The position numbers and the translations under genes are program-made. From NCBI RefSeq assembly GCF_013122565.1, contig NZ_CP053258.1: a stretch of DNA of 64,000 nucleotides; one strand, written 5' to 3'. How positions within the stretch are numbered: the first letter of the stretch is position 1; each line of letters starts with the position of its first letter. Shown piece by piece: positions 7,200 through 7,335 of the stretch. The stretch comes from Escherichia coli (lineage in GTDB: Bacteria > Pseudomonadota > Gammaproteobacteria > Enterobacterales > Enterobacteriaceae). Below the pieces are notes generated by a model. That model was not told where the DNA came from. It made no database searches and saw nothing but the letters and a program-made list of their open reading frames with translations.

Positions 7200-7335
7200 G
7201 GCTGTGTACATTCGCCGGGGGGTTTGTAGGTCTGATAAGGCGCGCCAGCGTCGCATCAGACATCAGCACGGTGTCTGTGCCGGATGCGGCGTGGACGCCT
7301 TATCCGGCCTACATAGTGCATAAATTCTTATAATA
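7200..7335. repeat. REP/BIME-type extragenic palindromic element cluster
   Basis: GC-rich imperfect palindromes such as tgccggatgcggcgtggacgccttatccggcctaca typical of E. coli REP units, between artM and artJ. Confidence 0.7.

Follow-up and report, generated by a model that had tools for sequence, protein, structure and literature searches.

A REP83-like BIME-2-type element between artM and artJ in an Escherichia coli genome

The stretch of Escherichia coli DNA analysed here (64,000 nucleotides; the whole stretch is called the window hereafter) carries two palindromic units of the REP family, one of the Z2 type and one of the Y type, in the spacer between artM and artJ. This pair is very probably the ortholog of REP83 of E. 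coli K-12, that is, a single BIME-2-type element in the 3′-UTR of the artPIQM mRNA, for which a role as a barrier or an insulator is proposed. An earlier note on this DNA had read the artM–artJ stretch as a REP/BIME cluster. This observation was confirmed and its interpretation was supported: the GC-rich imperfect palindromes that it described are present, at positions 7225–7313, and the match to the REP consensus that it named as the test was obtained with the REP325 units, the Rfam naRNA4 model, and K-12 REP83. As for the word cluster, REP units do lie between artM and artJ, but they compose one BIME of two units and not a cluster of BIMEs. The box of 7200–7335 drawn in the note contains the element but is too wide, by about 25 nt on the left side and by 22 nt on the right side: the portion 7200–7224 is a G-rich flank, which is indel-polymorphic jointly with the Z2 unit, and the portion 7314–7334 is a plain AT-rich spacer (21 nt) ahead of a terminator. 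The description as an ordinary backbone feature was borne out, the element being a catalogued REP/BIME at the expected place. It is already known as REP83 and holds nothing surprising for a specialist. Although it is of little importance alone, it confirms that the backbone annotation of the note is trustworthy.

Structure of the element in the artM–artJ spacer

The artM–artJ spacer spans 7197–7486 (290 nt), and the REP pair begins 29 nt past the artM stop codon. From the artM side, the spacer is composed of a G-rich flank, the Z2 palindrome, a linker, the Y palindrome, an AT-rich spacer, a terminator, and the AT-rich control region of artJ, in this order (Table 1). The same art gene names are found in the RefSeq annotation of matching E. 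coli genomes.

Table 1. Features in and around the artM–artJ spacer and elsewhere in the window
Feature	Position	Strand	Remarks
artP	about 4328–5056	+	
artI	5074–5805	+	
artQ	5812–6528	+	
artM	6528–7196	+	
G-rich flank	7207–7224		on the GTAG (tail) side of Z2; TACATTCGCCGGGGGGTT
Z2-type palindromic unit	7225–7262	+	38 nt; REP in the Ton-Hoang convention; GTAG at 7226–7229 (+)
S-type short linker	7263–7277		15 nt; TCAGCACGGTGTCTG
Y-type palindromic unit	7278–7313	−	36 nt; iREP on the + strand; CTAC at 7309–7312 (+), equal to GTAG (−)
Rfam RF02564 match	7229–7309	−	naRNA4 model of a Y–Z2 REP pair; antisense to the art genes
Intrinsic terminator of artPIQM	7335–7374	+	outside the BIME; 13-bp stem, 7-nt loop, T7 run
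artJ	7487–8218	+	true ATG at 7487; downstream of the artM spacer
Sulfatase gene	8269–9750	−	
PTS IIB gene	9763–10083	−	
PTS IIC gene	about 10105–11448	−	
RybB small RNA gene	23320–23398	+	full-length match to the Rfam model, 104.1 bits

The stem of the Z2 unit is formed by 7230–7236/7255–7261 and 7239–7243/7248–7252, with an AA/GC internal mismatch, and that of the Y unit by 7279–7286/7301–7308 and 7288–7291/7296–7299, with an unpaired C/T and an adjacent G·T. A repeat search detected the corresponding palindromes (7230–7243/7248–7261 and 7279–7292/7295–7308) and an arm-to-arm repeat (7225–7242/7296–7313). The G+C content of 7225–7313 is 62%, as compared with 49.8% window-wide. When the palindrome folds were compared with those of dinucleotide shuffles, low z-scores were obtained for the RNA of the Z2 unit (−19.2 kcal/mol, z = −5.3) and of the Y unit (−21.3 kcal/mol, z = −3.8), for the units folded as single-stranded DNA (z = −3.2 to −4.1), and for the 90-nt unit pair (−54.9 kcal/mol, z = −6.7). 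In the minimum-energy fold of the + strand RNA, Z2 pairs with Y to form one long hairpin, downstream of which the terminator hairpin is found. The long hairpin is nested in a weaker outer helix, formed by 7203–7209 with 7315–7321.

Two parts adjoin the palindromes. One is the flank at 7207–7224, which has no stable fold of its own (z = +1.25). In the allele alignments it lies within a block of 65–66 nt that E. coli strains either have or lack along with the Z2 unit, and a diverged version of it, ATTAGCTGGATGATTT, occurs between the first Y and Z2 of a three-unit allele. This flank is probably a remnant of the tail-to-tail inter-unit motif of BIME-2. As regards the flanking s, l, or r motif of BIME-2, the tail side reads on the − strand as the C-rich AAACCCCCCGGCGAATG, as against AAATTCCCGCACCCTCC in REP325, the reference used for the comparison. 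Another is the linker at 7263–7277, which corresponds to low-confidence columns in the Rfam alignment.

The REP motifs single out the same place. The Y unit has exact matches to both REP end motifs. The tail motif CTTATCMGGCCTAC, searched with two mismatches or fewer, occurs twice in the 64 kb, both times in the element, while 0.33 occurrences are expected. The head motif is undiscriminating at two mismatches (10 found vs 6.7 expected in the 64 kb), and its matches with no or one mismatch in the 64 kb are those of the Z2 and Y units of artM–artJ only. This pair is the sole REP locus in the window.

Identity with REP83 and family membership

The element is identical at 84 of 87 positions to K-12 REP83 (NC_000913.3 900750–900836), which is aligned to 7225–7311 of the window. 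The K-12 coordinates of REP83 were tested for alignment to the window and did align, so that the identification was not contradicted. The locus, the units, their order, and their orientation are the same in both, and so are the downstream terminator and the artJ leader. The differences are three substitutions (G for A at 7240, T for C at 7274, and T for G at 7292 in the window) and one T fewer in the flank of the window (G6T3 vs G6T4). The name and the coordinates were taken from paper supplements, with the copy of the NC_000913 record being devoid of repeat features: K-12 900750–900836 is listed as REP83, tandem, artM/artJ (supplement, bioRxiv 10.64898/2026.03.23.713779), and REP83a-b is listed for artJ/artPIQM (PMC10100675).

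REPs are defined as imperfect palindromes of 30–40 nt with a 5′ GTAG and a bulged stem, and are divided into the Y, Z1, and Z2 types; BIME-2 comprises Z2 plus Y with a short linker, and the linkers vary in length and sequence (PMC3333891). The two units agree with the definition of REPs in palindrome length, in the GTAG located 5′ of the stem foot, in the mismatch or bulge of the stem, in the extragenic location, and in the unit type. The copy number is also high in the genome, since the median number of places matched by a Y–flank–Z2 query is at least 29 per E. coli genome. For unit typing, the twelve units of K-12 REP325 were used as the reference. The Y unit is identical to REP325 Y at 33 of 35 positions, both differences being located in the loop, and the Z2 unit is identical to REP325 Z2 at 33 of 37 positions. 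The alignment to the Rfam consensus agrees with this typing, and the pair scores above the gathering threshold of RF02564, the Y–Z2 REP-pair model (71.9 vs 59.5 bits). Of the four Z2 differences, two belong to a single stem pair, the second from the foot, in which T:A (7231 T/7260 A) replaces the usual C:G. The change occurs on both sides of the stem, and thus the Z2 pairing is retained. This T:A pair is common to all seven of the aligned Z2-bearing sequences, including those of K-12 and Escherichia sp. E1V33.

With its Z2 and Y units in inverse orientation, their GTAG/CTAC ends facing outward, and its short S linker, the element corresponds to BIME-2. Tandem multiple copies of BIME-2 were not found in the window; there is only one Z2–Y pair, so the element is best called a single BIME-2-type unit. 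REP325, located between yjdM and yjdN, resembles it in the inverse orientation of Y and Z2 and in the short linker between them, which has ACGGTG as its core (ACGGTGCCGAC in REP325). There are also differences. REP325 has six tandem pairs and an 11-nt linker, while the artM–artJ element has one pair and a 15-nt linker. The order relative to the mRNA, Z2 in the GTAG form and then Y in the CTAC form, is the mirror image of that of REP325. Lastly, the artM–artJ element, unlike REP325, is followed by an intrinsic terminator.

BIME-1 (RIP) is likewise an inverted REP pair with a Y unit, but has Z1 as the partner and a long, IHF-binding L linker. It was excluded because the artM–artJ element has the Z2 partner and a 15-nt linker, and because the IHF consensus WATCAANNNNTTR has no match in 7197–7486. 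A likeness to REPIN/RAYT systems, where REP doublets are mobilised by a Y1 transposase present in single copy, is also seen, in the inverted REP doublet, the GTAG ends, the bulged stems, and the unit number varying between strains; GTAG ends and bulged stems are the determinants that TnpAREP needs in vitro (PMC3333891). The difference is that the artM–artJ element is not adjoined by a tnpAREP gene, and mobility at this locus is something that we infer from the allele series only.

One-, two-, and three-unit alleles among strains

Three alleles were distinguished. The Y only allele has a 225-nt spacer (RIVM_C039205, TUM1586, GF131, and UTME-7), the Z2–Y allele a 290-nt spacer (this window, K-12, O157:H7, and O18ac), and the Y–Z2–Y allele a 328-nt spacer (UCPROB-002 and O145 RM9872). 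Their junctions are located at the unit boundaries, and the two-unit form is common. A 129-nt query restricted to the BIME was covered to 80% or more in 3,452 of the 5,426 complete E. coli genomes, and most of the others match Y only. About one third of the E. coli genomes are without the Z2 unit, where the one-unit frequency is the complement of the long-allele count (BLAST merges the two flanks into one place). The two-unit form is therefore dispensable. The three-unit allele was found in about 51–71 records, as judged by the identity band.

The two-unit allele corresponds to the three-unit allele with nothing but its first Y (38 nt) missing. In the one-unit allele, the single Y is bordered on the left by the flank that precedes the first Y of the three-unit allele and on the right by the flank that follows its second Y, as expected after a deletion by recombination between the two direct Y copies. 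Such a deletion removes about 103 nt, which is one BIME-2 period. The three alleles would be the product expected of inter-unit recombination or of TnpAREP-mediated gain and loss. Variation in unit number at a locus has been described for BIME-2 (PMC3333891).

Escherichia sp. E1V33, whose identity to the window is 93.8% across 8.1 kb (6156–14283), carries the two-unit allele almost unchanged; thus, this allele is old. This outgroup informs on allele age only, and the one- and three-unit forms may have arisen by loss or by gain. When species representatives were scanned with the 22-mer ATAAATTCACTTGATGGCATTG, one locus was found, that of Escherichia sp. E1V33. The E. coli representative was apparently outside the scan: the 22-mer is present in K-12 and in every aligned E. 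coli allele.

Among the seven aligned Z2-bearing sequences, the substitutions at 7240 and 7274 occur in the window only. The change from C to T at 7274 makes 7270–7277 complementary to 7255–7262, and the composite Z2:Y hairpin on the + strand is −54.3 kcal/mol in the window, as compared with about −47 kcal/mol in the other alleles. The change from A to G at 7240 keeps pairing (G·U) on the + strand only, and the change from G to A at 7279 in UCPROB-002 does so on the − strand only. A bias of G·U-preserving substitutions toward the mRNA strand was dropped, as the signal is inconsistent between these two positions.

The closest genome over the 14.6 kb downstream is that of UTME-7, which has the one-unit allele (225-nt spacer, 3363–3587 of the UTME-7 locus). 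The BIME allele thus does not go with the haplotype next to it, a finding suggestive of recombination in the artM–artJ spacer or close by.

Possible role in the artPIQM mRNA and alternative explanations

The element follows the artM stop codon, precedes the intrinsic terminator, and lies within the artPIQM unit, and should therefore be in the mRNA 3′-UTR. It would be transcribed as the tail of the artPIQM mRNA. During transcription, folding would first yield two local hairpins, one of Z2 and one of Y. Either this pair of hairpins or the composite Z2:Y hairpin, which is more stable, would bar 3′-to-5′ exonucleases once the terminator stem is breached. The hairpins may also add pausing or partial termination and thereby keep artPIQM insulated from artJ, which is separately controlled by ArgR. 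As DNA, the element belongs to the family whose GTAG and bulged hairpin are recognised by TnpAREP/RAYT, the REP-associated Y1 transposase that has spread and reshaped it.

REP-family hairpins block 3′-to-5′ exonucleases, and attenuation of read-through by them is also possible. With REP325, both stabilisation of the upstream mRNA and attenuation are seen, and in tandem gene pairs with a REP the expression is biased to the upstream gene (bioRxiv 10.64898/2026.03.23.713779). A K-12 RNA-seq table in the same preprint gives a baseMean of 769 for artM and 176 for artJ, a ratio that is confounded because ArgR represses artJ's own promoter. According to this preprint, the lengthening of mRNA half-lives by REPs is not uniform, and REP fragments with 2–4 hairpins have no detectable Rho dependence.

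A modest stabiliser and insulator of the artPIQM mRNA is, on our analysis, the most likely function, though the case for it is weak, because a strong terminator is present, many strains are without Z2, and REP effects are reported to be context-dependent. The terminator hairpin (−18.4 kcal/mol, z = −6.0) stands 22 nt downstream of the Y unit and is kept in all ten of the aligned alleles. The Y unit is not itself an intrinsic terminator: ATAGTGCATAAATTC comes next, and no T run follows. With a strong terminator immediately downstream, termination does not require the BIME, which may contribute little to stabilisation.

A further proposal, which we consider doubtful, is that the one-, two-, and three-unit alleles act as a natural dial for the stability of the artPIQM mRNA and for read-through into artJ across E. 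coli lineages. Only about 17 nt separate the artM stop codon from the start of the Y hairpin in the one-unit allele. Liang, Rudd and Deutscher are said to have found in 2015 that REPs near the stop codon interfere with translation termination, and this spacing is close to the distance concerned. In any case, the alleles of this locus, with one, two, or three units, form a clean natural series with which the effect of REP number in a 3′-UTR on mRNA stability and read-through could be tested.

A serious rival to the stabiliser and insulator role is that of a neutral, selfish repeat: the element would be a REPIN-like passenger of RAYT/TnpAREP, tolerated in a harmless spot that lies between the stop codon and the terminator, and would have no effect on art expression. 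This is a real possibility, if the less probable one, and the two are not exclusive of each other. The variable presence of the units among strains, the terminator that is complete without the element, and the genome-wide data showing no uniform half-life effect (bioRxiv 10.64898/2026.03.23.713779) are all consistent with neutrality. On the other hand, the two-unit allele is nearly unchanged in an Escherichia species that has diverged by 6% in the surrounding genes, and the T:A replacement in the Z2 stem is found on both sides with the pairing retained. Both of these would also be compatible with neutrality plus gene conversion among copies.

It is improbable that the element is mainly a Rho-dependent terminator or a Rho loading site. 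An in-vitro Rho-binding peak, P_R10_637 (900745–900835 in K-12), overlaps REP83 by 85 nt (supplement, bioRxiv 10.64898/2026.03.23.713779) and maps to 7226–7316 of the window, and some REPs are partial Rho-dependent terminators. However, this peak is a weak one (log10 enrichment 0.31, count 1) and lies antisense to the art genes, with no in-vivo bicyclomycin-sensitive transcript listed for it. In addition, two-hairpin REP fragments showed no Rho dependence, and the sense direction already has its intrinsic terminator.

A primarily DNA-level site, at which gyrase binding or cleavage, or a cruciform, affects local supercoiling, is to be regarded as equally improbable. The Y plus Z2 composition is that of BIME-2, which, as Espéli and Boccard reportedly found in 1997, is linked to DNA gyrase, and, according to the computed folds, single-stranded DNA of either unit can form a hairpin. 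Against this, gyrase-active BIME-2 are typically arrays, but the artM–artJ element has one unit pair only.

The match to RF02564 raises the question of whether the − strand carries a gene for a naRNA4-like small RNA that binds HU and helps to organise the nucleoid. We consider this very unlikely. The match does exceed the gathering score on the − strand (71.9 vs 59.5 bits; E = 9e-11 for the whole window), with 45 bits on the + strand, and is the only one to do so in the 64-kb window; a nucleoid role has also been proposed for the REP325 RNA (PMC4550694). Nevertheless, RF02564 derives from a single Y–Z2 pair of REP325 and in effect models a REP pair, for which reason it is matched by any BIME-2 unit, and the − strand scores better because the unit order is the mirror image of that of REP325. 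The − strand is, moreover, antisense to two co-directional genes; its sole promoter-like site is a chance-level 9/12 match (2 found, 1.5 expected); and the preprint saw no effect of REP325/naRNA4 on nucleoid compaction (bioRxiv 10.64898/2026.03.23.713779). The naRNA4 match at this locus should accordingly not be annotated as an sRNA gene. Other Rfam matches at permissive E-values (L20 leader, MicC, and snoRNAs) were discarded as sub-threshold chance hits.

A small protein encoded by one of two ORFs that do exist on the + strand (7196–7333, 45 aa; 7198–7323, 41 aa) can be dismissed almost entirely: their coding potential was rejected owing to frame-breaking indels, in that the 1-nt insertion of K-12 (G6T4 vs G6T3) shifts the frame inside both and other strains have 65–66 nt less or 38 nt more, and the repeat family explains the sequence fully. 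Short ORFs across the REP element should not be annotated.

Observations on the surrounding regions

Upstream of artJ, two 17-nt direct repeats (TTTATTTCATGCAAATT and TTTATTGCATATAAATT) occur at 7369–7385 and 7397–7413, 28 nt apart. In appearance, they resemble the pair of ARG boxes that would be expected if ArgR controls artJ.

A block of three genes (the sulfatase, PTS IIB, and PTS IIC genes; 8269–11448, − strand) lies between artJ and rlmC in the window, while in K-12 and TUM1586 rlmC comes directly after artJ, without this block. The region 7400–22000 was covered to at least 80% in only 566 of the 5,426 complete E. coli genomes, and the best match to it among the RefSeq complete E. coli genomes has only 97.7% identity over 14.6 kb. 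The window apparently derives from an E. coli-like lineage with no close representative among complete genomes.

The RybB gene lies farther along the window (Table 1). An exact 35-nt copy of the Y unit was found in E. coli JM109 (NZ_CP117961.1 186808–186842, in a record of 231,544 bp), where it falls under the annotation "yahH: protein YahH"; in this case, an ORF has been called over a REP.
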